The translations under genes and the position numbers were made by a program. Below, one piece after another: positions 12,407-61,061 of a DNA stretch of 64,000 nt. This stretch comes from an uncultured Thermoleophilia bacterium. GTDB taxonomy: Bacteria; Actinomycetota; Thermoleophilia; Miltoncostaeales; Miltoncostaeaceae. The notes beneath the pieces were generated by a model that was not told the origin of the DNA, searched no databases, and saw only the letters and a list, made by a program, of their open reading frames with translations. The stretch is from positions 6,857-70,856 of the forward strand of contig CAVSFF010000008.1 of NCBI GenBank assembly GCA_963727285.1, read 5' to 3'. Position 1 is the stretch's first letter. Every line of letters starts with the position of its first letter.

Positions 12407-13577
12407 CCGCGCCGGCCTGGATCGCCCGCGAACAGGCCGCCCTGATGGCCAACTACCGGCGCCAGCCGGTGATGTTCACCTCCGGCTCCGGGGCGTCGCT
12501 GTACGACGCCGACGGCCGTCGCTACGTGGACTGCATGGCCGGGATTTCGATGATCAACGTCGGCCACTGTCACCCCGCCGTCGTCGCGGCGATCTGCGAG
12601 CAGGCCGAGCGGCTGATCAACGTGTCGAACCTCTACTACACCGAGCCGATGCTCGAGCTGGCGGAGTGGATCCGCGACCATTCGATGGGCGGTCGTGTGT
12701 TCTTCTGCAACTCGGGGGCCGAGGCCAACGAGGCCGCGCTCAAACTCGCGCGCAAGCACGGCGGTCCCCTGCGGCCGGAGGTCGTGGCCCTGGAGCACGG
12801 CTTCCACGGGCGGACCTACGGCGCCCTGACGTTGACCGGGCAGCCGGACAAGCAAAGTGCCTTCGTGCCGTTGGTCCCCGACATCCATCACGTCGGCCGC
12901 GACGACCTCGAGGCGCTCGAGGATACGGTCGGTCCGCGCACGTGCGCGATCTTCGTGGAAATCGTCCAAGGCGAAGTCGGCGTTCACCCGATCTCCCGCG
13001 AGATGCTGCAACTGGCGCGCAGGCTGGCCGACCGCCACGGGGCGCTGCTGATCATCGACGAGATCCAGACCGGGCTCTCGCGCACAGGGCCGCTGTTCGC
13101 CTACCAGGACGTCGGCGTCGAACCGGATGTCATGTCGCTGGCCAAGAGTCTGGGCGGCGGGGTGCCGATCGGTGCGATTACCGCACGGCCGGGCATCGAC
13201 ACGACGTTCGCGCCGGGGGACCACGGGTCCACGTTCGCCGGCAGCCCGCTCGCGTGCGCGGCCGGACTCGCGAGCTGCCGGGTGCTTGCCGACCCGGAGC
13301 TCCAGGGCGCGGTGCGGGCCAAGGGCGCCCGGCTGCTCGACGCCCTCCAGGCGCTGGTCGACGACGGCTGGCAACCGAGGCCCGCGGTCGCGGCCTGATG
13401 TGCGCGATCGATCTGCCGGACGAGCGTGCGGCCGCGGTCACCGCCGCGATGCTCGAGCACGGATATCTGGTCAACAACACCTCGGCCCGGACCTTGCGCT
13501 TCCTGCCGCCGCTGGTGATTGACGACGAGGATCTGGCCGGCCTCGCGACGACGCTGCGGGCGGTCCTCGCCGGCTGA
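12403..13577 (+). pseudogene. argD: Acetylornithine aminotransferase; frame broken near 13366
   Basis: GISMINVGHCHP, FFCNSGAEANEAALKLAR, IIDEIQTGLSRTG and MSLAKSLGGG. After ...ALVDDG the conserved end LATEARGRGLMCAIDL...LRFLPPLVI continues in the +1 frame (ORF 12666..13577). GTGA overlap with argB. Confidence 0.85.
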
Positions 13578-34455: not shown

Positions 34456-35412
34456 ATGGGATCCCGAATGACCGACGCACCCGCCCCGAAGATGCGCCGC
34501 CGTCCGCGGCGGATGCTGGTCATCGGCGGCGCAATCGTGGCGGCCGCGGCCGGCGTCGCCGTCGCCGTCGCCCAAGGGTCCGGGCACAAGGGTGGCCCGA
34601 CCACCGCCACCGCCGCGACCGCCAACGCGTCGCTCGGCGCAACGGCCGCAGCGACCGGCACCACGGCCACCTCCCCGCCGAAGAAGAAGACGCCCCCGCC
34701 GTCCGCCACCGCCGCAACCCAGCGCCAGATCCGGCGGATGATCGCCGCCAACGCAATCTTCGTGAAGGGCGGCGCCCGCGGTCGGCTGGTGGCCCTCACC
34801 TTCGATGACGGCCCCAGCATCTACACCCCGCATCTCGTGCGGGAACTGCGGCAGCTCAAGGCGCCGGCGACGTTCTTCGAAATCGGGAGCCAGATCCACC
34901 GCTACTCGGCCCTCGTGGCCAACATGACCAAGCTCGGCTTCGCGATCGAGGATCACACCTGGAACCATCCGGACCTCACCCGGGTGTCGTCGACGCAGCG
35001 TCAGGGTCAGCTGTTGTGGACCAAGAACGCGATCTTCAAAGCCACGCACGTCTACCCGCAGTTCTTCCGGCCGCCGTACGGCGCCCAGGACGCCCGCGTC
35101 CGCAGGGCGGCGGGCGGACTCGGAATGGTGACCACCGTGTGGAGCATCGACACCCGCGACTGGTCACGCCCCGGAACGGCGGCGATCATTCACGCGGCCG
35201 AGCAGGTTCGCCCGGGCGGGATCGTGCTGATGCACGACGGCGGCGGCAACCGCTCCGAGACCCTGGCCGCGGTCCCGGTCGTCGTCCGCTATCTGCGTGC
35301 CCGCGGCTACACCCTCGTCACGATTCCCCAGCTGCTCACCAAGGCGCCGCCAAGGCTGTCGACCAAGTGGCTGTCGACCAAGTGGCTGTCGGCCACACAC
35401 GGTGGCGGCTAG
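34456..35412 (+). CDS. Polysaccharide deacetylase (NodB homology domain), secreted/membrane-anchored
   Basis: N-terminal TM segment, then LTFDDGPS, HTWNHPDL, FRPPYG and IVLMHDGG. The C-terminus carries a duplicated LSTKW unit. Confidence 0.8.
   Translation: MGSRMTDAPAPKMRRRPRRMLVIGGAIVAAAAGVAVAVAQGSGHKGGPTTATAATANASLGATAAATGTTATSPPKKKTPPPSATAATQRQIRRMIAANAIFVKGGARGRLVALTFDDGPSIYTPHLVRELRQLKAPATFFEIGSQIHRYSALVANMTKLGFAIEDHTWNHPDLTRVSSTQRQGQLLWTKNAIFKATHVYPQFFRPPYGAQDARVRRAAGGLGMVTTVWSIDTRDWSRPGTAAIIHAAEQVRPGGIVLMHDGGGNRSETLAAVPVVVRYLRARGYTLVTIPQLLTKAPPRLSTKWLSTKWLSATHGGG
35356..35394 (+). repeat. 15-bp in-frame tandem duplication (2 full copies plus a partial third)
   Basis: ctgtcgaccaagtgg at 35356-35370 is repeated exactly at 35371-35385, followed by ctgtcgGcc. 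It encodes LSTKW-LSTKW-LSA. Confidence 0.85.
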
Positions 35413-39596: not shown

Positions 39597-40745
39597 TCAT
39601 CCGGTGAGTGAAAGCACTCCCGACCACACGCCGGCGACCTGGCCGGGCGTCTGAGGCTGGCCGCCGAAATACCATGTGGCCGCGTACCAGTGCCACTGTC
39701 GGGCCTCGCGAAACATCAGCTGTTCACCGGCCGCCGACGTCCGTCCGTTGCCGGTGGACTCCCCGGCCTCGAGGATGCCCGGCCGCAGCAGGCCGTGGAT
39801 GTACGTGGCGGGGTTCGGGTTGCTGGCGGTGCCCTGTGTCGCATCGGCGTACGTCGAATAGGCGACGACCCGTCCGGTGGCCGGCAGCCGCCGCACGAGA
39901 TCCACCCAGTCAAGGCCCTGATTGATCTCGTCCGGGGACCGGGTCAGCAGCGCGCGCGCCGCGATCGCCGTGCTCCCCGGGCGTTGTCCCCATCCGGGCA
40001 ACAGCAGCTCGAGCTTGGTGCTGACCGGGAATGCTATGCCCGCCGTATGTTCGAGCCAGACCCCGTAGTTGGCCAAGGCGCCGTTGTAGGCCTGCAGGAA
40101 GGCGGTGGCCTGACGGGCCGTTCCGTGCCCCGGGCGCCAACCGCGAATCGCGATCGGCAGGGACGCCTGGGACGACGCGTCGTAGAACCAAAAGGCATTC
40201 GGCTTGGCACCGCGTGCGCCCGATGGGTACCGCAGCTCGCCGTCGGCGAGCCCGCCGAGCCGAACGGCCGCGAGCCCGCGCAGGTGCGTGCCGAGGAGGC
40301 GCACATAGGCCCCGAGCTGGGTGCGTACTCCCGCGTTGGTGACCCCGTTGGCGACGTTGTCGCCGGATCCCGCCGATCCCGTGAAAGCGCGGCCGTACTG
40401 GTCGACGAAGCGGGTCCCGCCACCGACGGCGAAGATCCACCGCGGCGGGTATTGGATGCCGGGATCGAGAACCGGCTGCATGCCGGCGGCGCGCGCGGCG
40501 TCGATCGCCAGCTGCAACCTCGTGATCGCCCGCGTCGAGAAGACACCCGGACCCGGCTCGATGGCGGCCCAGCTGGTCGGGATCACGACCTGGGAAAAGT
40601 GCGCCGAGGCCAGGACGTGGGTGTTTCCACGAAAGCCGAGCCCGTTCAGGGCCGGCGCACCGGAGGTCGACGTGGACCCGACGGCGGCGGAGGTCAGCGC
40701 GAGCGCCACCGCCGCACCGGTGAGAAGTTGTGTCCTGCGATTCAT
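39597..40745 (-). CDS. Secreted protein, possibly a TIM-barrel glycoside hydrolase
   Basis: Signal peptide MNRRTQLLTGAAVALALTSAAVG. WAAIEPGPGVFS...LQLAIDAARAAGMQPVLD...YPPRW resembles GH42/GH35-type N-termini. The family assignment is not secure. Confidence 0.5.
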   Translation of the reverse strand: MNRRTQLLTGAAVALALTSAAVGSTSTSGAPALNGLGFRGNTHVLASAHFSQVVIPTSWAAIEPGPGVFSTRAITRLQLAIDAARAAGMQPVLDPGIQYPPRWIFAVGGGTRFVDQYGRAFTGSAGSGDNVANGVTNAGVRTQLGAYVRLLGTHLRGLAAVRLGGLADGELRYPSGARGAKPNAFWFYDASSQASLPIAIRGWRPGHGTARQATAFLQAYNGALANYGVWLEHTAGIAFPVSTKLELLLPGWGQRPGSTAIAARALLTRSPDEINQGLDWVDLVRRLPATGRVVAYSTYADATQGTASNPNPATYIHGLLRPGILEAGESTGNGRTSAAGEQLMFREARQWHWYAATWYFGGQPQTPGQVAGVWSGVLSLTG

Positions 40746-40883
40746 CGCGTGCATTCGGTCGCCGGCCGGGGGGTGCACCGTCAGTGGTATCGACACTGCA
40801 GGCATCGACCGAGGTCCGCGGGGACTTGAACCGCGTGGCCGGCGCGGGATCGGTGGCACGGTGCGATCGGCCCATCGACCCGG

Positions 40884-41603
40884 TCAGCGGACGATCGCCG
40901 GCCCGGTTCCGGACTGACGGCCGCCGGTCCGTGCCGGTAGCGCCGAGGTGTCGGAGGCGTCCGCGCGGCCGGAGCCGGGGGAGGCGGGGTCGATCGGGGG
41001 TGCGATCCAGACCGAACCCGGGGACGCGCGCGGGGTGGCGAGGGCGACGGATCCCCGCCGGCCGTCCGGAAACGTACGGTCGGCGACGGTCACATGCCAC
41101 ACATCGTCGGCGACCGCGATCCGCGCACGTCCGTTGCGGAGAACCTCGGCGGCGTCGAGACGGTCGAACGGGAGCGTGAGCCCCCGTCCGTCGGCCTTCG
41201 CGACGGCCTCCTTTGCGGTCCACAGCCGTATGAGCGCGGCCGCGCGATCGGCGCCCGGCCGTGCCGCGAGTGCCGCGACCTCCGCCACCGACAGGATTGC
41301 GGTGCTCGACGGGATGGCGCCGCCGAACAGCTCAAGATCGATGCCCACCCGGCAGTCGGCACGCGCGATCAGGGCCCAGCGATCGGCCGAGGTCACGCTG
41401 ATGTCGTCATTGCCGGAGAGTTCCGGGCGCCCATGGTCCGTCCCACCGCAGACCGGGCAGCGGCGGGCGACGGTGGTCCCCGCTTGCTGGGCGACCTGCG
41501 CGAGCGCCGTCGCCCTGGCATGGCGCCGGTGGGCCACGATAGGGCCATCCAGGGCGGGGTTCGGCCGCCCGGCGTCGAGGTCGGCGGTCCAGACCCTGAC
41601 CAT
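40884..41603 (-). CDS. 4'-phosphopantetheinyl transferase (Sfp-type)
   Basis: GRPEL...ISVTSADRWALIARADCRVGIDLE...LWTAKEAVAKADGRGL. It starts 8 nt after the NRPS-like gene stop. Confidence 0.75.
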   Translation of the reverse strand: MVRVWTADLDAGRPNPALDGPIVAHRRHARATALAQVAQQAGTTVARRCPVCGGTDHGRPELSGNDDISVTSADRWALIARADCRVGIDLELFGGAIPSSTAILSVAEVAALAARPGADRAAALIRLWTAKEAVAKADGRGLTLPFDRLDAAEVLRNGRARIAVADDVWHVTVADRTFPDGRRGSVALATPRASPGSVWIAPPIDPASPGSGRADASDTSALPARTGGRQSGTGPAIVR

Positions 41604-41611
41604 GGGGCCGA

Positions 41612-44600
41612 TCACGTCCCGGCGGCGAGCGTTCGGCAGTTGTCGTCGAGCCATGCCGCAAGTTCGCCGGACCGCAGTTCCCAGAGGTCGAATCGCGGTT
41701 GCCGGGTTGCGGTCAGGAACGCATCCGCCTTGCGCTCGTAGGTGAGGCCGACGAGCGGCACGCCGCACGACCACGCAAATATCTGGGCGTGGAGCCGATG
41801 GGCGACGACGAGATCCATGTGACCGATCGCCGCTTTGATGACCGCAGGCGCATGATCCGGGCCGACGACATGGGTCCGATCGGCGTCGCCCGTTCTGGAG
41901 AGCACGTCATGCGACATCGAGACGTCGGAGGTCGTGGCCCCGAGGCCGTTGTCGCCGCGATCAGACATGCAGAACAAGACTGCGCTGCCGCCCGAGGTGC
42001 GATGCCACCAGTCGACGGCCTCCAGCGCGACCTCCACCTGATGGACGTCGCGGTCACGGTAGCCGCACGGCTTGAGGGAGATGCCGAGCAGCGGCACGTC
42101 GTCGCGGACGCCGGCGGCGGTCAGGACCGCGCGCCCGACGCCGGGGGGCGCCGGAGGAAGCTCGATCGCGGGATCGGGGACGATGCGCGCATGGGGTGCG
42201 GCGAGCACACTCGCGCTCTCCCCGTCGCGCACCGCGACCATCGTCGACCCGGCTGCGACCGCTTGGAGGGCCCGCTGGACGAACTTCGGGCTCGACGAGT
42301 AGGCGCCCGTGCCGAGGAACATGGTCTCCTTGCGCAGCAGCATCTGCGCCCCCCAAACGGCCGCGGGGAGAACCGCGGTGTTGAGCTTCATGCCGTTGCC
42401 GAACAGCCCACCGCCGCCGATCGCGATCACGTCACTGGCGAGCACTGCACGGATCACGCGCGGGCTTGTCAGGTCGATCGCCGGGACGCCGAACTCGCGC
42501 GCGATCCGTGCCGGGGCGCGGGAGACGACCGTGAGGTCGGCGTACGGGGCGACCAGGGCCACGATCGTGGTGAGGATGGCGTCATCGCCGAGGTTGCCGT
42601 TGGCATAGTTGCCGAACATCAGGATGCGCGGCCGGCCGCGTCCCTCGAGGGCACGCCGGAGCTCGGATGCGAGGTCGCTGTCTTCAAACGGGCGCCATGA
42701 GGATGCGCGCCGCTCGGGGCCACCGTCGGGGGTCCACGCGGCGACGAAGCGTGCGAGTTCCGCCGCGAGATGCGCAACGTGCGGCGCGTCGAAGACCGTG
42801 TTGTGGTCACCGGCGATCGGTCGGGCAACCAGCGGACCGTCGACGAGGCGGTCCCAACCCAGGGCCCGACGGCCGCGCGCCATCCGCAGGCCCTGACGCG
42901 TCCACAGCAGCGTCAGCGGGCCCGCGTAGCGCGCGGGGCGGTAGTCCTGGGTGGCGAGATTGGTCCGGCGCGTGGCGCGGGCAACCGCCGATGCCAGCGC
43001 CGGGTCCGTCGCCGTGGTCCGCGACGGGCGCAGGCGTCCGCGCACCACCGAGCGCGCCATTGCGAGACGGTCGCGCCCGCCCGCATCGCGGACGACCGGC
43101 CAGTTCATCACGGCCTCGGCCCAGAGATAGTCGGCGCGGGACCGCGTCGCGGGCGTGTCGATCACCAGCAGGCCGGCGATCGATTCCCCGGCGATCTCGA
43201 GGCGCTGGGCGACCTCGAGGGCGATCAGGCCGCCCGCCGAGTGCCCCCCGACGAGGTACGGACCGTGTGCCTGGATTCCGCGGATGCTGGCGGATCGCGC
43301 ATTCGGCGAGGTCACCGATCGACAGCGTCGGGACGTCCACGTCGGCGCCGGCGTCGTGGACGTCAACCGGGATCACCGGGCAATTCGGCGGCAGGTGCGG
43401 CAGCAGGCGTCGGTACCCCAGCGCCGAGCCGACGTAGGGGTTGATGAGAAACAGCGGGGTTCCCGGGCCGGAGGGCCGGGCGGGCCCGGGCCGACCGGCG
43501 CCCTGGCGATCGACGAGCGCGGCGAGGCCGCCGATGGTCGTGTCGTCGAGCGCCTGCCGGATCGGAAGGCGGCAGCAGAACGTGGTCTCCATGCGTGCCA
43601 GCAGACCGATCAGCGTGAGCGAGGTTCCCCCGAGGTCGTCGAGGAAGTCGTCCTGCGCCCGGATGGCGCCGCGCGTGCCGAGTACCTGGTGCGCGAGCGC
43701 CACGACGAGGAGTTCGGCTTCGCTGAGCGGGGCGTCGGCCGCGGCCGCCGCGCGGAAGGGCGCCGTCACCGGCTGCGCCGCAAGCGCAGTGAGCGCGGCG
43801 TCGTCATGCTTGCCGTGCCGGGTCAGCGGAATCGCATCGATCGTGATGAAGCGGGCGGGCACCAGGAAGTCCGGGAGCGTCCGCTTGAGCTCCGCGCGTG
43901 CGGCGGCGGCGTCGAACGCTCCGACCGGAACGACGAACGCCACCAGCGCGGCATCGACGCCGGCTCCGGCGACCCGGACGGTCGCCGTCTCGATCTCGTC
44001 GAGCTGCTCGAGGGCGGCCTCGACCTCCCCCGGCTCGATGCGAAAGCCGCGCACCTTGAGCTGGCGGTCAACGCGACCGCCGTAGTGGAACCGGCCGTCA
44101 ACGCCGACCGATCCGAGGTCGCCGGTGCGGTAGGCCTGTACGGGCCGCCCGTCGTCATCGGTGATCTCGACGAATCGTGCCCGCGTCAGGGCGCGGTCGC
44201 CGACGTAGCCCGTCGCGACCTGCGGCCCGAGGATGAGCAACTCCCCGGTCGTGCCCGCGCCGACGGGTTCGAGCCCGGCATCGACGACCCTCAGCCGCGT
44301 TCCCGGGACCGGCGTTCCGAGCGGGACGGGATCCGGAATCGGCAGGGCGACCTCGTAGGCACAGACGAACACCGTTGCTTCTGTCGGGCCGTAGGCGTTG
44401 ATCACGCGCAGCCCGCGATGTGCGCCGAGCAACCGGGCCGCAAGCGCCGGGGGCAGCACCTCGCCACCGACAACGAGCGTTGTCAGCGAGTCCGGGAGCT
44501 GACCGGACCTGAGCAATTCCCGGGCCACCGACGGCGTGGTCGCGCACATCGTGACACCGTCCCCGGCGGCCCCGAGCGCCGCCACGTCCGGGATGACGCG

Positions 44601-45296
44601 GACGCAGCCGCCGGAGGTCAGTGCGCCGAAGATCTCGATGATGTGCGGATCGAAGCTCAGCGAGGTGCTCGTGGCGGTGAGCGCGAAGTCCTCGGGTGCG
44701 CACCAGTCCGCGAGTGCCGCCGCGAAGGCGGCGAGGTTCGCACGGCTGACGCGGACCCCGTTGGGGACCCCGGTGGTCCCGGAGGTGAAGATGATGTAGG
44801 CGTCCGCTGCGGGATCCGCAGCCACGCCGGTGAGATCGCCGGCGGGCACCGCGTCGTCGGGAAGCGCGCCCTCGATGTGCGGTGCGGGCAGGTCCCGCCC
44901 GCATTCCCCCAGGCCGATGACCGCTGCGACATCGGCCGCCGTGCACATCGCCTCGCGCCGTGCGCGCGGCAGGTCGGGATCAAGCGGCACATACGCGCAG
45001 CCCGCAGCGAGTGTTCCCAGGATCGCGACAACGGCTTCGACGCACCGCGGCAGGCAGATGCCGACCGCCGCTCCCCGGGCGACGCCGGCGCCCCGAACGC
45101 GCGCGGCGAGGGCCATCGCCAGATTCCTCAACTCGCCGTAGGAGACCTGCCCGGTGTCGTCATCCAACGCCGGTGCGTCGGGATTGTTCGTGGCCCCGTG
45201 CCAGACGAGCTCGAGGACGTCGGGGCTCGTGAAGGGCGCCGGTCCGGACCTGGTCGCCGCCGATGAGGGGTCACTACGCGGGCGCTGATCGCTCAT
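41612..45296 (-). pseudogene. NRPS-like adenylation-PCP-thioesterase module fused to a polysaccharide pyruvyl-transferase domain; one frame break near 43290
   Basis: A-domain cores: IIFTSGTTGVPNGV (A3), SLSFDPHIIEIF (A4), NAYGPTEATV (A5), GELLILGPQVATGYVG (A6), YRTGDLG (A7), GRVDRQLKVRGFRIEPGEVE (A8), PLTRHGKHD (A10). PCP: DDLGGTSLTL. TE: PLFLINPYVGSALGY ... [shift] ... GPYLVGGHSAGGLIA ... GDHNTVF. The same frame then continues as ILMFGNYANGNLGDDAIL ... VAHRLHAQIFAWSCGVPLVGLTYERKADAF (PS_pyruv_trans-like). Confidence 0.8.
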
Positions 45297-47905
45297 TGCT
45301 GGGGTGCCTCCGAGAACGGTGCGGGGTGGGGAGTCGGTCCGCGATCCGGCTCCGTTCGCAGGCGGTCGGCGAACGGCAGCCCATGAAGCGTCGCGTCGTA
45401 CAGGTCGCCCTGGCGGGCCGCCAAGGCGTCCCATTCCAGCCCGGCGACCGCGCCGGGTCCGCAGCGGCCGAGCCGCCGCGCCAGTGCCTGGTCGAGCGCG
45501 ACGGAGCGAAGGGCCTGGGAGTAGCGGTCGAGGTCGAAGGCGGGCACCAGAACGCCCGCCCGCAGATCGACAACCCCGCGCAGGCACGGGATGTCGAACG
45601 CCACAACCGGCGTCGCGACCGACAGGGCCTCGGCGGCGACCATGCCGAAGGTCTCGTACCGGGACGGCATGGCCAGCAACGCGGCTCCGGCGAGCCATGC
45701 GAAGCGATCCTCGGGGGCGACACGCCCGACGAAATGCACGCGGTCCCCGACGCCCAGATCGGCGGCGAGCGCCTCGAGCACGTCACGGTCGGGCCCGTCG
45801 CCGCCGATGAGCACGTCGTGGTCGACGTCGCCGGCGATCGTCGCGTAGGAGGTCAGCAGCATGTCGATGCCCTTCTGCGCGATCTCGATCCGGCCGAGAT
45901 ACGCGATCCCGGTCCGGGGCTGATGCCGTGGGGTCATCCCGTGGGCATCGAGCCCGTTGGGGACGACGGCGACCTCGGCCCGTGGGTTGCGGGCGGCGAG
46001 CATCTGGCCGAATTCCTCCGAGACCGCGATGAGGCGCCGGTGGGAACGGACGCCGATCCGTTCGACCAGATGGAAGGGGACCCGGTATTCGTCGCGCTTC
46101 TGCTCGGCGAAGAGCCACTGGACGACGCCGATCGTCGGTCGATCCGTCAGCCACGGGACGGCGACCGACGAGAACGGGGCACCGAAGTCCTCGACCACCA
46201 GGTCGGACGGGTAGCGCCACAAGATGTAGGGGATCAGCGCGAAGTAGCTGAGGATCCCAAGACGGGAGCGGGTACGGAAACCCGCGTGCCTGTACCGCAC
46301 ACCGTCTTCGACCCGTGCGACGGCGCCCGGATACGCGGCGCAGACCACGGTGATCTCGTACCGGGCGGCGAGGCGACGGTTGATCGCGTGGGTCCGGACG
46401 GATCCGCCCCCGGATCCGGGTCGACGCGGGTCTTCGTACCCGAGATGCAGAACGCGCCGCGGCCTGCCCGGCATGTCGCGGTGACCGGCGCGGCGCAGGG
46501 CGTCGGCCACCGGGACGGCGGCGCACACCAGCACCGCGACGGCCCACGCCGGTCCCGAGCCCCGTGTCGCACACAGCGGGACGGCCAGGACGAGGCCGAC
46601 GGCGGCCGTCCGCACCACCGAGCGCAGGCATCCAGGCCAGATGCGGGCACAGTCCCTGAGCAGGCTGACCGCGATCAGAAGTGCGCCGGCGGCGACACCG
46701 GCGGCGAGTCCCCGCGGCCCGGCCAGCTGCAGGCCCGCAAGCTCCAGCGCGCCGCTGGCGACGATGCCGATGCCAAGTGTGATCGTCGTGCGGCGGATGC
46801 GCCCGGTCGCCTGAAAGTAGGTCGTCACCAGGTTGACGAGGCCAAGGGCGAGTCCGGCGGCCGCGGCCACCGGCAGGACCCTCGCGATGTTTCCGTAGCT
46901 CGCCGGGAACAGGTGGACGACGAGGACCGTCGGGGTGGTTGCGATCACCGCCGCGGTCGGGATCGCGATCCTCAGGTACAGACGCAGGCTGGCCCGGATG
47001 TCCGCCGGGCGGCTGCCGATCGCCGCGGCCACGCGGGGAAAGACGATGATCGACAGTGATGCGCCGACAAACAGCGCCGCCCTGCCGAGGACGTTTGCGG
47101 CCTGGTAGGTCGCCAACGTCGCGCTCGCTCCGAGCGCGAGACTCGCCACCACGACATCGAGGCTGGCGAGCACGGCCACGCCGCCCTGAATCGACAGCAG
47201 GCCGACCGTCGCGGACCAGAGCCGCCGGTCGAACACTGCGCCGCGGACCCGGCGCATGTCTGCGCGCATGCATGCGCCGCCGACCATGGCCACGATCAGG
47301 GCACCCGCGGCAAACCCTGCGATTGCGCCCTCGGCCCCGTTCCCGGCGAGGACCAGGACCGCGGCCGCGAGGATCTTCACCACCACCTCGGTGACCCGGA
47401 GGACCGCGATCAGCCGAAACCGCAATTGCCCCTGCAGGTAGCCGACCGTGGTCGACGCGGCGAAGATCACGATCACTGCGACGAATGCGGCGGTGAGGGT
47501 CGCCGGTGCCGCGTACCGCGCGGCGACCAGACAGGTGGCGATCGCCGCTCCGGTGGCCTGGATCAGGGTCGCCGCGACGGAAAAGCCCACGGCGCGCCGT
47601 CGGATCTCGGCGTCGTGCCCGGACGTGGCGACCTCGCGGGCCAAGACCCACGGCACCGAGGCGCCGGCCACCGTGCCGAAGATCAGAAGCAGCGCCGAGA
47701 TGGATCCGACCACCGCATACTGGGTCGGCGGAAGCAGCCAGATCATCAGCAGCGTGTAGGCGTAGTTGAGGGCCGCGACGGCGGCGGTGGCGGCGAGCAC
47801 CACCGCTTCGGCGCCACGTCGCGGCGTCCGGGCGGGTGCCACGGCGGCGGGTCCCGAGATCGACACGCCGCGGGGTTCCACGGACGCCGTGCCGACGACG
47901 CTCAC
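45293..47905 (-). CDS. Wzx-like (MOP superfamily) polysaccharide flippase fused to a GT4 glycosyltransferase
   Basis: The N-terminal 480 aa or so is polytopic with about 12-14 hydrophobic helices in flippase-like spacing. The C-terminal 380 aa or so is GT4: VLHLGYEDP...GGGSVRT, GDGPDR and SRYETFGMVAAEALSVATPVV. GTG start overlaps the upstream stop (GTGA) and the stop overlaps the NRPS-like start (ATGA). Confidence 0.7.
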   Translation of the reverse strand: MSVVGTASVEPRGVSISGPAAVAPARTPRRGAEAVVLAATAAVAALNYAYTLLMIWLLPPTQYAVVGSISALLLIFGTVAGASVPWVLAREVATSGHDAEIRRRAVGFSVAATLIQATGAAIATCLVAARYAAPATLTAAFVAVIVIFAASTTVGYLQGQLRFRLIAVLRVTEVVVKILAAAVLVLAGNGAEGAIAGFAAGALIVAMVGGACMRADMRRVRGAVFDRRLWSATVGLLSIQGGVAVLASLDVVVASLALGASATLATYQAANVLGRAALFVGASLSIIVFPRVAAAIGSRPADIRASLRLYLRIAIPTAAVIATTPTVLVVHLFPASYGNIARVLPVAAAAGLALGLVNLVTTYFQATGRIRRTTITLGIGIVASGALELAGLQLAGPRGLAAGVAAGALLIAVSLLRDCARIWPGCLRSVVRTAAVGLVLAVPLCATRGSGPAWAVAVLVCAAVPVADALRRAGHRDMPGRPRRVLHLGYEDPRRPGSGGGSVRTHAINRRLAARYEITVVCAAYPGAVARVEDGVRYRHAGFRTRSRLGILSYFALIPYILWRYPSDLVVEDFGAPFSSVAVPWLTDRPTIGVVQWLFAEQKRDEYRVPFHLVERIGVRSHRRLIAVSEEFGQMLAARNPRAEVAVVPNGLDAHGMTPRHQPRTGIAYLGRIEIAQKGIDMLLTSYATIAGDVDHDVLIGGDGPDRDVLEALAADLGVGDRVHFVGRVAPEDRFAWLAGAALLAMPSRYETFGMVAAEALSVATPVVAFDIPCLRGVVDLRAGVLVPAFDLDRYSQALRSVALDQALARRLGRCGPGAVAGLEWDALAARQGDLYDATLHGLPFADRLRTEPDRGPTPHPAPFSEAPQQ

Positions 47906-49539
47906 GGTGTGGGCGCCCCGGTCAGTGCGCTCACCTCGTACAGGCGCAGGCTTCCCTCACTCGGCCCGTCGGCCCGGAACATGAGTCGCCCGCGACGGTT
48001 GAGGGTCGCCAGGAACTCCTCCGAGGCCAGGCCGTACCCCTGATGGGTCAGCGTGGTTGCGACCAGCACGTACTGCACGTGGTGGGCCACGATCGCGGGC
48101 AGCGTGCTCCATTGGCCGATGACGCCGTGGCGGATGAGGAACTGGGAGGTGTAGTCGGTGACCGCAACTACCGAGTCCGGCGGAACGTGCGCAGACTCCC
48201 AGGCCAGCATCTGCTGGTACTCGTTGTCCGAGCGGGTATGGACCTGGAACCAGATCACCCCGTTGACCGCGAGCACCGCCACAATGCACGCCACCAGCGG
48301 CGATCGCCAGGTGGTCCCGCGATGCGCGGGCCGGCCTGAAAGCCAGGTTGTTGCGGCCGCGATCGCCGGTGCGAGCAGGATGTAGTACATCTGCTCTTCG
48401 ATCGATCCGAACAGCGTCGCGTAGACGAGATAGGCGGCCGCGACACCGGCCCAGACGGCGATCAGGATCGTCACGCGGTCCCGCGGGGTCCGGTCGGCGT
48501 CGGTGCGCCAGGGGCGAAGACGCACCACGAGCCCGACCGCGGCCAACGCACCGAGGCCCAGCAGAACGTACGTCGTGCCGTAGTCGGTCAGGTGGGCGAC
48601 GATGCGGGAGGTCAGCGACACGTGCACCGTCGGCGAATTGAATCCCGTCTCCTGCCGCACGCCGACCAGCCGCAGTGCGTCGTCGTACTTGGCGGTCCAC
48701 CACGCACCGAGCCCCGTCGAGGTCGCCACCGAGAGCACGATGATCAGATAACCGGCGAGCGTGATCCCGAGCACGGTCAATGCGTGGCGACGGGGGAGCA
48801 CCCATTCGGTGATCGCGAGCACGGCGAGGATCGCGATCACCACCATCCCGAACGTTTCTTTGCTGGTGATCGCCATCGTCCCGGCGACGCCGGCCAGGGC
48901 GACGCACCATCCGCGCGCCCGACCCGGTCCGAGGCACGTCGCCACCGCGATGAGCGCGCACATGCCGGCCACACCGGCCTGCGCGGGCGCCTCGAGCATG
49001 ACGCGGCTGTCGAACGTGATCGCGAACGGATCGGCAGCGGCGACAAGGGCCGCGGTGAACGCGATCGGACGGCGCGTCACCCGGTCCAGCAGCACGAACA
49101 GCGCGACTGGGATGAGGGCCCCGAAGGCGGCCGTCACGTGTCGGAGTTCAAAAATCGCCTGTTCGAGGCCGCCGTGGGCACCGAGGATCCAGAGTACGCC
49201 GCCGAAGATCATGAACGCCGACGGGGGGTGAATGTCGAATGCTCGTCCGTACAGGGTGACGCCTGCGCCGTGGGCGACGTTCATCGCGACCCGCGCGTAT
49301 GAGGTCTCGTCGATAAAGAGGTCGTAGGACCGAGTGATCGCGATCAGGCGCAGCGCAAGGGCGATCACGAACATGAGCGCCGCGCAGGCCGGCAGGCTGG
49401 TGAGCCAACCGACGAGCCGGGTACGTGCCGGGGCGACGGGCGCGAGGGCCGACGGGCCAATCGCCCCGGTGCGCCGGCGGGAAATGGCAACGCTGCGCCT
49501 GATGCGCCGGTCCGGCGCGTCGTGGGGGGTGGTGCTCAT
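47902..49539 (-). CDS. GT-C fold membrane glycosyltransferase (family 39/83-like, PMT/ArnT type)
   Basis: About 11-13 TM helices, the first-loop acidic motif YDLFIDETSYARVA, and a soluble C-terminal domain of about 130 aa. Confidence 0.6.
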   Translation of the reverse strand: MSTTPHDAPDRRIRRSVAISRRRTGAIGPSALAPVAPARTRLVGWLTSLPACAALMFVIALALRLIAITRSYDLFIDETSYARVAMNVAHGAGVTLYGRAFDIHPPSAFMIFGGVLWILGAHGGLEQAIFELRHVTAAFGALIPVALFVLLDRVTRRPIAFTAALVAAADPFAITFDSRVMLEAPAQAGVAGMCALIAVATCLGPGRARGWCVALAGVAGTMAITSKETFGMVVIAILAVLAITEWVLPRRHALTVLGITLAGYLIIVLSVATSTGLGAWWTAKYDDALRLVGVRQETGFNSPTVHVSLTSRIVAHLTDYGTTYVLLGLGALAAVGLVVRLRPWRTDADRTPRDRVTILIAVWAGVAAAYLVYATLFGSIEEQMYYILLAPAIAAATTWLSGRPAHRGTTWRSPLVACIVAVLAVNGVIWFQVHTRSDNEYQQMLAWESAHVPPDSVVAVTDYTSQFLIRHGVIGQWSTLPAIVAHHVQYVLVATTLTHQGYGLASEEFLATLNRRGRLMFRADGPSEGSLRLYEVSALTGAPTP

Positions 49540-49582
49540 TCGATGTCCGTTCCAGGGCGTCCGTGCCGCGGGGCGGGCGCCG

Positions 49583-51022
49583 TCAATCGAGTCCCGCCGA
49601 TGCGATCGGCGTGTGCTCGCGCGCTGCCTCGAGGCGGCCCGAGAGCCCACCGGGGACCATCAGGTCGGCGGGCCGGGCGACACTGCAGACGATGGCATCG
49701 TCGTATGCGATCGGCTCGGGAAGTCCGCTACGGATCAGCACGAGCCGTGCCGAGGCGGTGTCGGTTCCCGGCAGCACGAGTAGCCGTCCGGTGGCGTGGC
49801 CGATGACCTGGTCGGTCATGCGCAGCTTTGGGGACCACCATTCGGGGGCGACGCGGTCCGGGACATCGATGATCGTGACGGCGTCGTTCGCGGACCGCCG
49901 TTCGGAACTGTCGAGCGCAAGGCGCGCCTGTTCGGCCCGGATGGTGCGAAGGATCCGCTCGGCCATCTCCGGCCAGCTGAAGCAGCTCGCCCATGCCCGG
50001 GTGCGATTCGACCAGTCGGCGGCCTGGCTCGGGTCCATCAGGTCCTCAAGCGCGGTGACGGCGCCGTCGGCCAGTCGCGACTCGTCGTCGACCAGCCAGC
50101 CGGTCTCTCCGTCCCGTACCGAGTCCCGAAGTCCGGGGCGGTGGATCGCCAACACGGGGATGCCGAGTGCGTTCGCTTCGATCACCGACAGCCCCCAGCC
50201 CTCGGCCGCGGACGCGTTGATGCTCATCCACGCGCTGGCCAGGAGGCGATCGCGGTCGACCGCGGGGAGCGCGCCATGGAACGTGACGGCGTCGCCGAGC
50301 CCGAGCTCAACGGCGCGCGACTCGAGTGCCGGGCGTCGATTGCCCTCGCCGACGATATGGAGCTCGACGTCCGCAAAACGGCGTCGAAGGGCGGGCATGA
50401 CCTCGAGGATCAGCTCGGTGCGCTTATGGGCGGTGAGGCGTCCGACGCAGACGATGCGCGGATGCGCGGCGCGTGTGCGGTCCGTGGCCGGGGCCCGGTC
50501 CAGACCCGGGGGCGCGATCGTGATCGGGCCGCTCAGCTGCAGCGCCTGACGGATCTCCTGGCGGGTGGACGGGGAGACCGCGACGATTGCGCGGCGTCCG
50601 TAGGCCATCCGGCTGGCCGGCCCTTCCAGGAACACCCCCAACCGGGCCAGCGGCTTCGGCAGTCCGGCGGCCATCTGGTTCTGATGGACGTGGTGGAGCA
50701 ACAGCACGACGGGCGTGCGTCGGCCGACCGCGAGCGGCGTAAAGAACGGGATGCCGTTTTGGGAGTCGATGATTGCCTGGATGTTGCGGCGACGCATCAC
50801 GAGCCACACGAGCGCCCACCCGTAGACGGTGTAGCGGCTGCCGCGCCGGATGATCCGGAACCCGGATCGCGACTCCTCATGTGGCTTGCCCGCCACGGCG
50901 GCCGTCAGATACACCACGCGGTATCCCCATCGTGCGTAGCAGGCGGCAAGGTTCTCGCAGACGACCTCGGCACCGCCGGCATCCGGGTGATCGAGGTCGC
51001 GCCAGTTGGTGATGATGAGCAT
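49583..51022 (-). CDS. GT4 family glycosyltransferase with uncharacterised C-terminal extension of about 110 aa
   Basis: MLIITNWRDLDHPDAGGAEV..., VGRLTAHKR, and the E-x7-E region AAEGWGLSVIEANALGIPVLA. Confidence 0.75.
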   Translation of the reverse strand: MLIITNWRDLDHPDAGGAEVVCENLAACYARWGYRVVYLTAAVAGKPHEESRSGFRIIRRGSRYTVYGWALVWLVMRRRNIQAIIDSQNGIPFFTPLAVGRRTPVVLLLHHVHQNQMAAGLPKPLARLGVFLEGPASRMAYGRRAIVAVSPSTRQEIRQALQLSGPITIAPPGLDRAPATDRTRAAHPRIVCVGRLTAHKRTELILEVMPALRRRFADVELHIVGEGNRRPALESRAVELGLGDAVTFHGALPAVDRDRLLASAWMSINASAAEGWGLSVIEANALGIPVLAIHRPGLRDSVRDGETGWLVDDESRLADGAVTALEDLMDPSQAADWSNRTRAWASCFSWPEMAERILRTIRAEQARLALDSSERRSANDAVTIIDVPDRVAPEWWSPKLRMTDQVIGHATGRLLVLPGTDTASARLVLIRSGLPEPIAYDDAIVCSVARPADLMVPGGLSGRLEAAREHTPIASAGLD

Positions 51023-51096
51023 CCGCCGGGCGGGACTCTGCGGGGACGGCGCCTCGGCGCGGTGCGCAGCGGTCCGGGTGCGAAACGGCAGCCGGA

Positions 51097-52077
51097 TCAA
51101 TGCGCTGCCTCGGCCGGCTGCCACCCGTGGACGCTGCGCCGGACGCGGCGAAGGTCGAGAAACGACTGCACACCGTCTGAGACGCCCCGAAACGATGATC
51201 CATCCTGGTCGTGCCACGGCACCGGCATCTCGATCAATCGGACACCGTCGACCCGCATCGCGCGGGCAAGGATTTCGAGGTCGAAGCTGAAGCCGTCGAT
51301 CTGGGTGTCGCGGAAGACCCGTCGCGCCACGTCCGCCCGGAAGAACTTGAACCCGCACTGCGTGTCGGCGACGTTGCCGCGAAGGCGAGCGGATGCCGCG
51401 CGGAACGCGCCGCCGCCGACACGCCGCGCCAGCGGCTGGCGTCGTTCGTAACTGGCACCGGCGCAGCGCCGCGAGCCGACCACGACATCCCATCCGGACC
51501 CCAGCAGGCTCATCGCCCACGGGAGGGCATCGGCCGGGACAGGAAGGTCGGCGTCGCAATAACCGACGTACTCACCGGTCGCGTGGGCGACTCCGGATCG
51601 GACGGCCGCACCCTTGCCGCGGGCCGAGCAGCTGATCACCGTGGCGGTGACACCGCTGCCCGCAATTGCGACGTCGGCGGCGGAGGCCGTCCCATCGACG
51701 CTGTTGTTGTCGACGACGATCAGATGGACGGGGAGGTCTCGGACAGAGATCACCTCGGCGAGCTCGGTGAGGGTCCTGCCGATGCGGTGCTCTTCGTTGT
51801 ACGCCGGGATGATCAGATCGAGCCGTCCCGTGATGGCGTGCGTCGTCGTCGGGCCGCGGCCGTGGCTTGCACTGCGTCGTGTGGGGAAGTGCAGGAGTCC
51901 GGGAGTATCGGGGCCGTCGTGCCCGGAATCTTCAGTCGGGTGGGAGACATGACGACGGTCGGGACCGCTGTCGAAGGCAATGGGGGAGCTCATTCGCTTC
52001 TCCGAGTCGCAGGAGTCGATATGGGGTGTGAGCGGGGGTCGTGTGAGGTGCCGCGGCTCCGATCGGGCGGGGTTCAT
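51097..52077 (-). CDS. GT2 polyprenyl/dolichyl-phosphate glycosyltransferase-like enzyme
   Basis: [35 protein letters not shown] (DxD), QCGFKFF and GFSFDLEIL, the typical DPM/DPG-synthase-like pattern. The start could be 51993. Confidence 0.8.
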
Positions 52078-52281
52078 ACGGTGGCCTCAGCCTGCCAGCG
52101 CCTGACCGTCCTCCGCATCCGCCCGAGGGAGGAGATCGCCCGACGCGGTTTGTGCGCACGGCCAAGATTCGGCAGCCCGCCAACTGCTCCGCGCGCGGTC
52201 GTCCGCGTGGCCGTGTCGGAGCGGAACACGGGTGCGGATACACTTCCGGCGAGATCGCAGTCTCGACCCGGGGGTGGAGCG

Positions 52282-58616: not shown

Positions 58617-60347
58617 TCATTCGAAGGCACCCAGGTGGCCAAGCCCTTGGATGAACGCTCCGGATTCCCAGAGGTCGACGAGGGTGAGGACGACGAGCGG
58701 ACAGAACTGGGTCCCGGCGAGGGCCGTGCACTGCGAGAGGGCGTCCGCGGCCGGAAGCGGATCGCGGTACGGGCGACCCGCGGTCATCGAATCCCACGAG
58801 TCGGCCAGGCCGAGAATGCGCGCGCCGTCGGGAATCAGGTCCCCGGACAGGCCATCGGGGTACCCCTGCCCGTCGAGACGCTCCTGGTGGTGACGCACCC
58901 ACAGCACCTGCTCGTCATCCAGGATTCCGGCAATGATCTGCGCACCGATCTCCGCGTGAGTCCGCGCGATGCGGTACTCGTCGGGCGTGAGCGCTGTCGT
59001 CTTCAACAGGATCTCGTCGGGAACCCCGACCTTGCCGACGTCGTGCAGTAGCGCCGCTTCGCGGAGACGCACCTCGCTCGAGGTCGACCACCCCAGTCGC
59101 CGCGCCAGGTGCCCGGCCAGGTCGGCGACCCGGCGCGAGTGTTCGAACATGCTGGGATCTCTGGCATCGACGGCGCGCGACATGGCATAGACGGTGCCGA
59201 TGTCGTCGGAGCGCCCGGACGGTCGAGGCTCTGGGGCAGCCGGTCTCCCATGCGGCCGCGGGTCCACGTACTCGCCGGTGGCATTGCCCGGGAGCGATCG
59301 GGCACGGCCGAGGGCATCGGCTGCCGCCGCCATGAGTGCGTCCCCGTCGCGGACGTGTCCGGCGTCGCAGATCCCAATCGAGACACTGACGCCCTCCGGC
59401 AATTGCTCCCGGGCGATCTCGGCGCGCAGGCGGTCCGTCGCAACGCGTCCACCCTCCAACTCGCAGTACGGCAACAGCCACCCGAACACGTCACCATCGA
59501 GTCGTCCGAGGATGTCACCGCCACGCGCTGCGCGGCCAAGCCGTCGCGAGACGCGTCGGAGCACACGGTCGAAATCGTCGCCGTCGGGCGCCCCGTCGGT
59601 CGATGTCCGCCCGTTGACCGACACTTCGACCAACGTCAGCGCGTGGCTGTGGCGTCGGGACCGCACGGCCTCTTGGGTCACGCGCTCGCGGAAGAGGACC
59701 TCCGTCGGGAGTCCGGTCAGCACGTCGCGGGCATCACCGGTGAGCCGGGCGAGATCGACCGCGTTGATGACGACGGCGCCCACCAGCTCAGCGATGCCCG
59801 AGAGCAGGTCCGACGCGATTCCGTCGACCGTGCACGGTTCCTGCCAGGACACCGCGATGGCCCCCCAGATCCCGCAGGCGGTGGAGAGCGGGGCGGCAGC
59901 GGTCGCGGTGGCCATTCGCCGTGGTGCGGCGGGTGGTCCGTCGCGGTCGGGTGCCGAGTAGGTGGCCGACCAGCTTTCGCGTCCGCCGCGGGTCATCTGG
60001 GCGGGCGCACTCGCCCGACCGCGCGGCGCGCGCCCCCACTCACCGACGAGACGGGCATCGTCGCCGTCGAAGCGCCAGATGGCCGCCGACGCTCCGCCGA
60101 GCTCGGCGGCGACGATGCGCGTGGCTTCGCACGCGATCGCATGTGGATCGGATTCCGACAGCGCGAACGTCACCAATTGACGTACGACCCGATACTCATT
60201 GCACTCGGCGGGCACCACCGAGCGATCCCGCCCTGCAGATGCGGGGAGGTCGGCGAGGACCGTCGCGCCCAGGGCCCGAGGTCGGTCGCGGGGCTCGGCA
60301 ACAGCACGGGCGCCTGCGACATCCGATGTCTGACCAGACTCATGCAT
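58617..60347 (-). CDS. GAF - degenerate GGDEF - HD-GYP signalling protein (likely c-di-GMP phosphodiesterase)
   Basis: N-terminal GAF-like region. DVLTGLP...LGRLDGDVFGWLL has the GGDEF site replaced by DGDVF. HD-GYP: HSRRVADL, LLHDVGKVGVP and HHQERLDGQGYPDGL. Confidence 0.8.
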   Translation of the reverse strand: MHESGQTSDVAGARAVAEPRDRPRALGATVLADLPASAGRDRSVVPAECNEYRVVRQLVTFALSESDPHAIACEATRIVAAELGGASAAIWRFDGDDARLVGEWGRAPRGRASAPAQMTRGGRESWSATYSAPDRDGPPAAPRRMATATAAAPLSTACGIWGAIAVSWQEPCTVDGIASDLLSGIAELVGAVVINAVDLARLTGDARDVLTGLPTEVLFRERVTQEAVRSRRHSHALTLVEVSVNGRTSTDGAPDGDDFDRVLRRVSRRLGRAARGGDILGRLDGDVFGWLLPYCELEGGRVATDRLRAEIAREQLPEGVSVSIGICDAGHVRDGDALMAAAADALGRARSLPGNATGEYVDPRPHGRPAAPEPRPSGRSDDIGTVYAMSRAVDARDPSMFEHSRRVADLAGHLARRLGWSTSSEVRLREAALLHDVGKVGVPDEILLKTTALTPDEYRIARTHAEIGAQIIAGILDDEQVLWVRHHQERLDGQGYPDGLSGDLIPDGARILGLADSWDSMTAGRPYRDPLPAADALSQCTALAGTQFCPLVVLTLVDLWESGAFIQGLGHLGAFE

Positions 60348-60448
60348 CCCAGACGTCCCCGCGGTGTGGTTGTCCTTGCGTCTACAGATCAATGTCCGGA
60401 TCGACGCCAAACGTTTCCGGACCGCGCACCCCGGCGGGCTGGCGGTGA

Positions 60449-61061
60449 CTACCGGTGTCCGTTGACGGTCGGGCGCGCGTCCTCGTCGCGCAGCCGGCGA
60501 CGCATCCGGAGCATGTGTGTCTTGACCGTGTTCGGCGAGATGACGAGACGTTCGGCGATCTCGCGCGGTCGAACGCCGTCGTTCAGCAGGTCGAGGATCT
60601 CGCGCTGACGCGACGTCAGGCCCTCGCGGGAGTCCGCGACGGCGAGCGCACGGACGGCCGCCGCGCTCACGGCTGCCCTGCCGCCACGTACAAGTTCCAA
60701 CGCAGCCAGAAACTCGTCGCGCGCACAGCACACGTCGAGCACTCCGGATGCGCCGCGCCGCATGAACGAGACCTCGTCACGCACCTCGCAACGACTTGTC
60801 AGCACGAAGAATCCGGGCGTCGCGGGCCTCCTGGTTGAGCACGGTCAGCAGCGACGGGACCTTCGTGTCGCCGACGAGCACCACCACGTCGGGGCGGGTG
60901 TCCCTCCAGGCCGTGCGGATCTGCCACGCCGTGGAGGCGACGCCCGCGACGGCGACGGTGGACGGCGCGGCGTGGATCCAGGCGTGGATGCCGGCGGTGA
61001 CGAGGGGTGCACGCGATACGACAAGCACCGCGCACCGCCGCGGACCACCGACGTCGGGCAC
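60449..61061 (-). pseudogene. LuxR/NarL-family response regulator with atypical receiver; frame broken near 60795
   Basis: The receiver-like N-terminus AVLVVSRAPL... lacks the usual acidic DD pair; PDVVVLVGD follows. After ...ARDARIL the text continues in another frame as VLTSRCEVRDEVSFMRRGASGVLD, then the LuxR HTH LTSRQREILDLLNDGVRPREIAERLVISPNTVKTHM. Confidence 0.7.

Follow-up and report, generated by a model that had tools for sequence, protein, structure and literature searches.

An adenylation-carrier-thioesterase protein fused to a CsaB-like pyruvyltransferase in a candidate glycan-tailoring cassette of an uncultured Thermoleophilia bacterium

To our knowledge, bacteria decorate their surface glycans with amino acids either through carrier-protein systems of the Dlt and Alm type or through tRNA-dependent or ATP-grasp-dependent enzymes. 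The window analysed here, a stretch of 64,000 nucleotides from contig CAVSFF010000008.1 of an uncultured Thermoleophilia bacterium (GCA_963727285.1), holds a gene for a protein that combines an adenylation (A) domain, a peptidyl carrier protein (PCP), a type I thioesterase (TE) and a CsaB-like ketal-pyruvyltransferase (PvT), and that stands among genes for glycan assembly. Its first half recalls DltA and DltC, where an amino acid is likewise activated by an adenylation enzyme and attached to a phosphopantetheinyl carrier for the esterification of an envelope glycopolymer; DltA models align over the whole A domain, with 232 bits against a cut-off of 559.85. Dlt employs a free carrier and off-loads through DltB (an MBOAT protein) and DltD, whereas here the carrier is fused and off-loading by the TE is proposed; no MBOAT or DltD family member was found among the proteins of the cassette. 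In further contrast to Dlt, the predicted target of this step is a lipid-linked intermediate on the cytoplasmic side. AlmE, AlmF and AlmG carry out the glycine modification of Vibrio cholerae lipid A (PMC4278540). They share with the mechanism proposed here the carrier-dependent aminoacyl transfer to a glycolipid by a ligase, a carrier and a transferase, with no peptide bond made. AlmG is a membrane acyltransferase, whereas the third part here is a TE domain within a single chain to which a PvT is joined.

The second half of the protein resembles CsaB, WcaK and Pvg1p in its full-length match to PF04230, its N-terminal G-x-Y-x-x-G-N-x-G-D motif, its Arg/Arg-x-His/Lys set and its GT-B-like fold (PMC10435577). 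Relatives labelled CsaB are 22-26% identical to the window PvT in the domain alignment; unlike CsaB, WcaK and Pvg1p, this PvT is fused C-terminally to a module of the nonribosomal peptide synthetase (NRPS) type. The TE of mycobacterial Pks13 offers a parallel for a carrier-linked TE that releases an acyl chain onto a sugar and not onto water, but Pks13 is a polyketide synthase (PKS) for mycolic acids, and the similarity is weak and local (E ~1e-4) and supports no functional inference by sequence. ChtnH, the megapolipeptin enzyme and CplI also place a PF04230 enzyme beside carrier machinery, a TE and a phosphopantetheinyl transferase (PPTase) (PMC13291983, PMC8313283). In their case the genes are separate and belong to large Burkholderiales assembly lines, which include condensation (C) and ketosynthase (KS) domains, whereas the window PvT is fused to a single C-less module among glycosyltransferases and a flippase. 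The synthetases of the atromentin and ralfuranone type, which dimerise aryl-alpha-keto acids, are C-less A-T-TE proteins with non-hydrolytic TE chemistry; they activate alpha-keto acids and are not known to have Asp235, the residue that contacts the alpha-amino group. The window family, by contrast, keeps Asp235, passes the amino-acid adenylation model and lives in a glycan cassette. All four domain families are known, so that nothing is categorically new; what is new is the arrangement, a TE-terminated C-less NRPS module standing in a glycan cassette and here fused to a ketal-PvT.

The gene occupies the minus strand at the position given by an earlier note on this DNA. Its start ATG at 45296 overlaps the stop of the upstream gene as ATGA, and its stop TGA (41614-41612) overlaps the GTG of the following PPTase gene as GTGA. 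Mechanical lists of open reading frames (ORFs) are crowded here, because the G+C content of the window is about 70%; analysis of GC by codon position nevertheless indicates real minus-strand coding over the whole gene, the phase of which changes near 43.3 kb. In the assembled sequence the gene is read as two ORFs. ORF A (45296 to 42807) encodes the complete adenylation domain, the carrier domain and the first third of the thioesterase, and after ...DLAECAIRQ it continues as Arg/Pro/Gly-rich out-of-frame text as far as 42807. ORF B (43366 to 41612), in the neighbouring frame, resumes the true reading at IRGIQAHGPYLVGGHSAGG and runs through the remainder of the thioesterase and the PvT domain, without a stop between them, to its end at 41612. 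The two frames join at CAG-c-ATC, and a 1,227-residue protein results if base 43286 is skipped. The single polypeptide described in the earlier note does not exist in the sequence as assembled and stands once this base is skipped; the same note had suspected frame trouble at 43250-43330, and the extra base lies within that interval.

Five Pfam domains score above their gathering cut-offs on the frame-corrected protein: AMP-binding, AMP-binding_C, PP-binding, Thioesterase and PS_pyruv_trans. This is the A-PCP-TE-PvT order read earlier from short motifs, and every motif quoted at that time (TSGTTGVPNG, FDPH, LGGTSL, GHSAG and GDHNTVF, together with the two PvT signatures GNYANGNLGDDAIL and AHRLHAQIFAWSCGVPLVGLTYERK) was found again. 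In agreement with the earlier note, Pfam finds no condensation domain (PF00668) in the protein or in any gene of the cassette, although more distant homologues (35-39% identical) have one. A full-length AlphaFold2 model of the frame-corrected protein, the check that the earlier note had proposed, reached a mean predicted local distance difference test score (pLDDT) of 85.8.

We consider it rather likely that the gene is a four-domain fusion of two neighbouring tailoring enzymes, in a conserved, mobile glycan cassette of actinobacterial type, and that it works as follows. The adjacent PPTase would prime Ser559 of the carrier; the A domain would adenylate a neutral alpha-amino acid and load it on the PCP; and the TE, working as an acyltransferase and not as a hydrolase, would take the aminoacyl group on Ser686 and acylate a lipid-linked sugar with it, at a hydroxyl or an amino group. 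The C-terminal PvT domain would use phosphoenolpyruvate (PEP) to form a pyruvate ketal on the same intermediate. The two activities, aminoacyl transfer and ketal pyruvylation, are most likely both cytoplasmic and directed at one lipid-linked glycan. Both steps would take place on the cytoplasmic face, as the A domain needs ATP and the PvT needs PEP, both of them cytoplasmic, and before export by the flippase-glycosyltransferase protein; the GT-C enzyme would then move the exported glycan to its final acceptor. CsaB acts on a disaccharide linked to lipid-PP (PMC10435577), and off-loading by a TE onto a sugar has a precedent in Pks13, the TE of which releases mycolate on trehalose (PMC9210659).

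In the pyruvyltransferase part, PF04230 matches with E 4.6e-18 and 66.5 bits against a cut-off of 25.3, over positions 1-279 of the 280 in the model, so that the assignment first made from two signatures is significant by hidden Markov model. The CsaB model TIGR03609 aligns end to end at 118.4 bits, its equivalog cut-off being 213.1; by these scores the domain is a relative of CsaB and not a CsaB orthologue. Arg1023, Arg1167, His1169 and Lys1189 (R163, R307, H309 and K329 of the domain) are putative PEP-site residues, are invariant in an alignment of 26 sequences and would correspond to R148, R306, H308 and K328 of CsaB. The spacing R-x-H...K matches 306-308-328 of CsaB, in a mapping made by motif and spacing with the P. 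alvei CsaB outside the alignment. Mutagenesis of CsaB has shown that R148, H308 and K328 matter for PEP binding, with R306 in the same set (PMC10435577). AlphaFold2 folds the domain as two Rossmann halves of GT-B type (pLDDT 92.4, pTM 0.91). The top PDB matches of this model in Foldseek are generic GT-B enzymes (E ~1e-8), and no entry among the top 50 is a pyruvyltransferase by name.

The A domain passes the amino-acid adenylation model TIGR01733 (344.2 bits against 317.4), and the solved structures nearest to it are ordinary NRPS A domains. The core motifs FDPH, NAYGPTE and GK are readable, and the equivalents of Asp235 (44651-44649) and Lys517 (43811-43809) are both kept, which points to an alpha-amino acid, the substrate type anticipated by the earlier note. 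Threading on the GrsA positions, with motif anchors and the family alignment as guides, gives the code DPIAVGAVFK, exactly the string that had been read by eye; the family consensus is DP[ILM]A[VML]G[ACTV]V.K, with the ninth position free. The specificity pocket has no charged residue, and the small residues Ala, Gly and Ala at 278, 301 and 322 suggest, on a weak basis, a neutral and fairly large side chain. The code has no confident match among published ones; it presumably comes closest to those for aromatic or large neutral residues, a likeness too weak to use. In the carrier domain the phosphopantetheine-site Ser559 lies within LGGTSL (43622-43620). The TE shows a complete triad, with Ser686 in GHSAG (43240-43238), Asp713 at +27 from the serine (43159-43157) and His831 in GDHNTVF (42805-42803), and the solved thioesterases closest to it are NocB and AB3403.

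The glycan setting comes from the neighbouring genes. The fusion gene is the fifth of seven translationally coupled genes on the minus strand, in the order glycosyltransferase 2 (GT2), GT4, GT-C, flippase-GT4, fusion gene, PPTase and a secreted protein that resembles a glycoside hydrolase (GH). The first six are linked by ATGA, GTGA or TTGA overlaps or by short gaps, and the seventh follows after a gap of about 130 nucleotides. The secreted protein weakly resembles GH-A (TIM-barrel) hydrolases (Glyco_hydro_42, E=0.051), and its homologue in the related locus L002 matches the same family with 6.5e-05 and 22.9 bits against a cut-off of 21. The pairing of a PPTase with a gene of the target type recurs in five related loci (L001, L002, L003, L004 and L012). 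In GCA_017882545.1 (L022), the flanks of which are about 82% identical to those in the window, the syntenic region runs from a ROK kinase to AIM24 in about 3 kb and the cassette is missing (L022 7106-7558); because of this absence we regard the cassette as an accessory island. Examination of the island borders found no tRNA gene, no integrase and no convincing direct repeats, and a scan of the operon for promoters and terminators gave sites no more frequent than chance.

The same genes could instead belong to a pathway for a diffusible glycosylated small molecule or glycolipid of NRPS-like origin, in which the PvT would tailor a diol of the aglycone or form an ester, with parallels in the chemistry proposed for chitinimines, megapolipeptins and carenaemins. 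Stand-alone tailoring genes of the PvT family are indeed conserved in PKS and NRPS clusters, with ketal or ester chemistry proposed for them (PMC13291983, PMC8313283), and secondary-metabolite clusters typically have an Sfp-type PPTase of their own. We rate this alternative as unlikely in view of the company that the gene keeps: a GT2 like polyprenyl-phosphate-sugar synthases, a GT-C/PMT enzyme, a MOP flippase and a secreted GH-like protein make up a toolkit for lipid-linked extracytoplasmic glycosylation, and no C, KS or other chain-building domain accompanies them. The closest relatives of the PvT, moreover, are fused to flippase-GT4 proteins in cassettes without a carrier protein.

The junction between the TE and the PvT decides whether a fusion exists at all. 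The two domains share one frame, and the linker between them, free of stops as the earlier note had held, comprises about 13 disordered residues (pLDDT below 50 at residues 832-844 of the full-length model). Reading of its frame 0 found no ATG, GTG or TTG. A C5 run lies in the linker, some 40 codons before an internal Met, and a two-gene model was considered in which one C of this run is deleted, so that the TE ends at a TGA overlapping the Met of ...ILMFGNY. This model was rejected: the frame-0 text before that Met, EDSDLASELRRALEGRGRPRIL, can be aligned with N-terminal segments of stand-alone PvTs and of P0003, a protein described below, the 27 codons upstream of the only Met being homologous to stand-alone PvT N-termini; AlphaFold2 folds the same text, with confidence, into a helix and the initial beta-strand of the PvT domain; and the linker has no start codon. 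Judged from sequence and model, the fusion of TE and PvT is real.

An independent example supports this. P0003, from an independent metagenome, is a protein of 1,201 residues, 45% identical over 96% coverage, with the identical order of four domains in a single uninterrupted gene call, and it is located in the same type of cassette. Across all searches the window protein and P0003 are the only two full A-PCP-TE-PvT fusions, in line with the expectation that the architecture would prove uncommon. A word-indexed search with a TE+PvT query found no further full fusion, and a query with the PvT alone returned stand-alone PvTs and no full fusion. An exhaustive HMMER search gave 11 long proteins, and none of the nine that were scanned has an A-PCP-TE; six of these nine carry GT4 and/or Polysacc_synt (with or without GT2) and three the PvT domain only. 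In a scan of JGI metagenomes PvT was in none of the stretches scanned at eight loci, two of which end at or just past the TE. The GTDB species representatives, scanned with the fused protein, contained no true relatives, and literature searches found nothing describing the A-PCP-TE-PvT architecture or the cassette. The nearest relatives of each half of the window protein lack the fusion and P0003 is more distant, a pattern that suggests more than one origin of the full fusion.

Comparison with related loci provides insight into what was fused. The cassette recurs in many soil metagenome contigs and metagenome-assembled genomes (MAGs), in Acidimicrobiales MAGs and in Kineococcus sp. NUM-3379, and it is kept in L002, L003/L004, L007, L009, L012 and L013 as well as around P0003. 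In L009 an A-PCP-TE gene is followed, after 24 nucleotides, by a separate PvT gene 54% identical to the window domain, and L007 is similar. L002 has a solitary A-PCP-TE gene with the PPTase and the GH-like gene behind it, while L010 has a fusion of the flippase/GT4-PvT type in a cassette without any carrier protein. Other combinations include flippase-GT4-A-PCP-TE single proteins of 1,726-1,748 residues (P0009, P0014 and P0133), a GT2-A-PCP-TE fusion (P0127), flippase-GT4-PvT fusions (P0196, P0199 and P0215) and a GT4-PvT fusion (P0190). With the halves separate and adjacent in L009 and L007 and solitary in L002 and L010, the fusion looks like a joining of two neighbouring tailoring enzymes. 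The physical tie to a glycan enzyme that the earlier note had emphasized is present as an in-frame fusion, but it is not mechanistically obligatory. Since each tailoring part occurs without the other, the fusion probably reflects co-localisation on one substrate and not channelling from PCP to PvT.

The frame break affects how the window copy is to be regarded. As assembled, the thioesterase has no uninterrupted frame, as the one-nucleotide insertion at 43286 splits the domain. Skipping this base gives a gap-free junction alignment with 14 homologues (DLAECAIRQIRGIQAHGPYLVGGHSAGG against, for example, DLAEHALNQIRAVQPHGPYLLGGHSAGG), and in the full-length model the corrected junction is a helix (pLDDT ~94) that leads into the nucleophile elbow. 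The window contains at least nine frame breaks in 64 kb including this one, the at least eight others falling in xfp, argD, ftsX (twice), the Na/H exchanger, Mrr, SpoIID/NlpC and u176. Among 18 syntenic genes intact in GCA_017882545.1, five are broken in the window (xfp, Na/H exchanger, Mrr, SpoIID/NlpC and the 176-aa protein). The four breaks that were compared base by base with the related genome are all single-base insertions in the window, and the break in the fusion gene is likewise one extra base. Sibling assemblies of the family contain fragmented copies with breaks at unrelated positions. As the window is so full of such breaks, the one at 43286 is very probably an assembly artefact.

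A genuine break would mean either a recent pseudogene or expression in pieces, as an A-PCP protein with a dead, truncated TE and a separate PvT started at the internal Met. The sequence as assembled says as much, the calls of the source annotation match the pieces (P0001, 829 residues with a nonsense tail, and P0162, a PvT of 335 residues from the internal Met, both on one contig of 78,666 bp), one motif change (A3 Lys179Asn) is seen in this copy alone, and the accessory nature of the cassette would make its loss tolerable. This explanation is quite unlikely in our estimate, as conserved genes, argD and phosphoketolase among them, are affected by the further breaks within these 64 kb. At family-invariant positions this copy deviates at five, within the range of 0-10 found in each of the other 14 sequences, so that there is no sign of decay; the GC at third codon positions (GC3) remains of coding type on either side of the break; and a start at the internal Met would leave the PvT without its conserved N-terminal helix and without a part of strand beta-1. 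Gene calls from an assembly so rich in indels are unreliable, and the practical lesson is that such indels led the source annotation to split and mis-call the A-PCP-TE-PvT gene.

If the break is set aside as an artefact, the role of the TE has to be considered. It might only edit the carrier by hydrolysing mis-loaded groups, with another cassette protein transferring the aminoacyl group, or it might release a free compound as the product. TE domains are usually hydrolases or cyclases, and a YbaK-type deacylase and a DUF6875 protein accompany the cassette in L003 and L007, which would link editing functions to it. We take this to be very unlikely. No MBOAT, DltD, AlmG-like or condensation-type transferase occurs among the families of the seven island genes, so that aminoacyl transfer, with neither a condensation domain nor another acyltransferase encoded in the island, is left to the TE as sole candidate. 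Without exception the TE of this family is joined to the PCP in one protein; it shows conserved, family-specific lid motifs (e.g. Y[LI]W[AG]E.V[ML]NWP), and hydrolysis alone would be a futile cycle wasting ATP.

A programmed +1 ribosomal frameshift inside the TE has next to no probability and was rejected, since neither a slippery sequence nor a stop codon marks the site, the zero frame remains open over about 160 further codons, other family copies are intact there or broken elsewhere, and the one point in its favour, a break in L007 2-4 codons from the homologous position, concerns a gene that carries further breaks, in addition to a window full of indels. That break (L007 9330-9345) lies in the thioesterase of a distant relative, and its proximity to the site homologous to 43286 is probably a coincidence, given the further breaks in the same gene and the lack of a frameshift-prone sequence context.

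Several observations weigh against a fusion enzyme that aminoacylates and pyruvylates one lipid-linked glycan. The gene is broken as assembled. The A3 motif reads TSGTTGVPNG, with Asn179 (AAC, 44762-44760) where 14 of 14 relatives have PK[GA]; the substitution pointed out in the earlier note is present, but it occurs in no other of the 15 family members and could be either a true variant or a base error of an error-prone assembly. The PvT domain scores below the CsaB equivalog cut-off, and a PDB sequence search with it gave no meaningful match. The transferase role of the TE is a deduction, TE domains being hydrolases or cyclases by default, and no obvious initiating phosphoglycosyltransferase is present in the cassette. 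In PKS and NRPS pathways, enzymes of the PvT family can have non-sugar diols as substrates or make esters (PMC13291983). Finally, the fusion is no proof of coupling, because L002 and L010 each hold one tailoring part only in otherwise identical cassettes.

If the TE does off-load onto a glycan, it would represent a different solution for glycan aminoacylation and would widen the known roles of TE domains. We tentatively go a step further, to a proposal that we hold with more doubt than conviction: envelope glycans may be aminoacylated by a third, hitherto undescribed route that depends on a carrier protein. The A-PCP-TE module, with its conserved code DP[ILM]A.G.V.K and its own PPTase, would be the working part of this route; the type I TE would take the place of an MBOAT/DltD pair or an AlmG-type enzyme in bonding sugar and amino acid on a lipid-linked intermediate, and the repeated fusions to flippase-GT4, GT2 and PvT proteins would mark a membrane-associated tailoring complex. 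The A-PCP-TE-PvT protein would then add a free alpha-amine (positive) and a pyruvate carboxylate (negative) to the same glycan. Such linked placement of cationic and anionic groups bears on surface charge, on interactions with phages and antimicrobial peptides and on zwitterionic polysaccharides. The cassette is compact and mobile (seven genes, about 12.5 kb) and its occurrence in Kineococcus sp. NUM-3379 makes these ideas directly testable.

Table 1. Features of the fusion gene, its cassette and the frame breaks in the window, with flanking genes in related loci.
Feature	Coordinates	Strand	Remarks
A-PCP-TE-PvT gene	41612..45296	-	1,227 codons once base 43286 is skipped
Adenylation domain (AMP-binding + AMP-binding_C), aa 33-496	43809..45200	-	Pfam, TIGR01733
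AMP-binding (PF00501), aa 33-364			E 7.3e-65, 219.7 bits
AMP-binding_C (PF13193), aa 424-496			E 5.3e-06, 27.7 bits
Peptidyl carrier domain (PF00550), aa 531-595	43512..43706	-	E 9.2e-09, 35.9 bits against 20.8
Type I thioesterase (PF00975), aa 614-840	42776..43457	-	E 5.6e-24
Single extra base	43286..43286	-	Separates ...AECAIRQ from IRGIQAHGPY..., ahead of the GHSAG elbow; most probably inserted by the assembly
Flexible TE-to-PvT linker, ~aa 859-871	42683..42721	-	In frame, no stop or start codon (three-frame reading)
CsaB-like ketal-PvT domain	41615..42673 (Pfam match 42595-41735, aa 901-1187)	-	PF04230
Accessory island, ~12.5 kb, with seven-gene cassette	39740..52230 (39.7-52.2 kb)	.	blastn and tblastn against L022
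GT2 glycosyltransferase	51097..52077	-	Best matches polyprenyl/dolichyl-phosphate hexose synthases, all below cut-off
GT4 glycosyltransferase	49583..51100	-	TTGA overlap with GT2
GT-C membrane glycosyltransferase (PMT_2)	47902..49650	-	Orthologues match PF02366 PMT
MOP-family flippase (Polysacc_synt) fused to GT4, 870 aa	45293..47905	-	Stop overlaps ATG of the fusion gene
Sfp-type 4'-phosphopantetheinyl transferase	40884..41615	-	PF01648, 3.8e-13
Secreted GH-like protein, ~380-420 aa	39597..40754	-	N-terminal RR-containing signal MNRRTQLL...AVG
argD frame break	near 13,390 (13385-13395)
FtsX/MacB permease, two frame breaks	near 15,415 and 15,540
SpoIID/NlpC gene frame break	30160
Mrr gene frame break	32322
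Na/H exchanger gene frame break	34130
176-aa protein (u176) gene frame break	39435
Phosphoketolase (xfp) frame break	near 55,650
Flanking DUF6875/YbaK/He_PIG genes	L003 4847-6066; L007 12446-13123; L003 2234-4537; L013 12659-14866

The Kineococcus locus (L012 7386-12661, GCA_054590795.1) contains two tandem A-PCP-TE genes, of 872 and 886 residues, with the different codes DPLFMGVVWK and DPLMAGSVLK and a TE apiece. The arrangement suggests decorations of two kinds and fits their independent addition, not the assembly of a peptide. From its strain-style name we take Kineococcus sp. NUM-3379 to be a cultured isolate and hence a possible experimental system.

Among the relatives, the DUF6875 protein and the homologue of YbaK-type aminoacyl-tRNA deacylases lie beside the cassette in L003 and L007, and large He_PIG (Ig-like) surface proteins lie beside it in others. 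The former are possible proofreading partners and the latter possible targets of glycosylation; the island of the window has no DUF6875, YbaK-type or He_PIG gene.

Elsewhere in the window, ARAGORN calls a tRNA-Arg(TCG) at 34636-34716 on the minus strand, inside and antisense to a conserved polysaccharide deacetylase gene. The call is probably a false positive, as Rfam finds no tRNA there at gathering score. About 6.5 kb from the cassette, at 58617-60731 on the minus strand, lies a gene for a 704-residue protein with GGDEF and HD-GYP-type (HD_5) domains, of the kind concerned with the turnover of cyclic di-GMP; ppgK and the genes for phosphoketolase and acetate kinase lie between the two.

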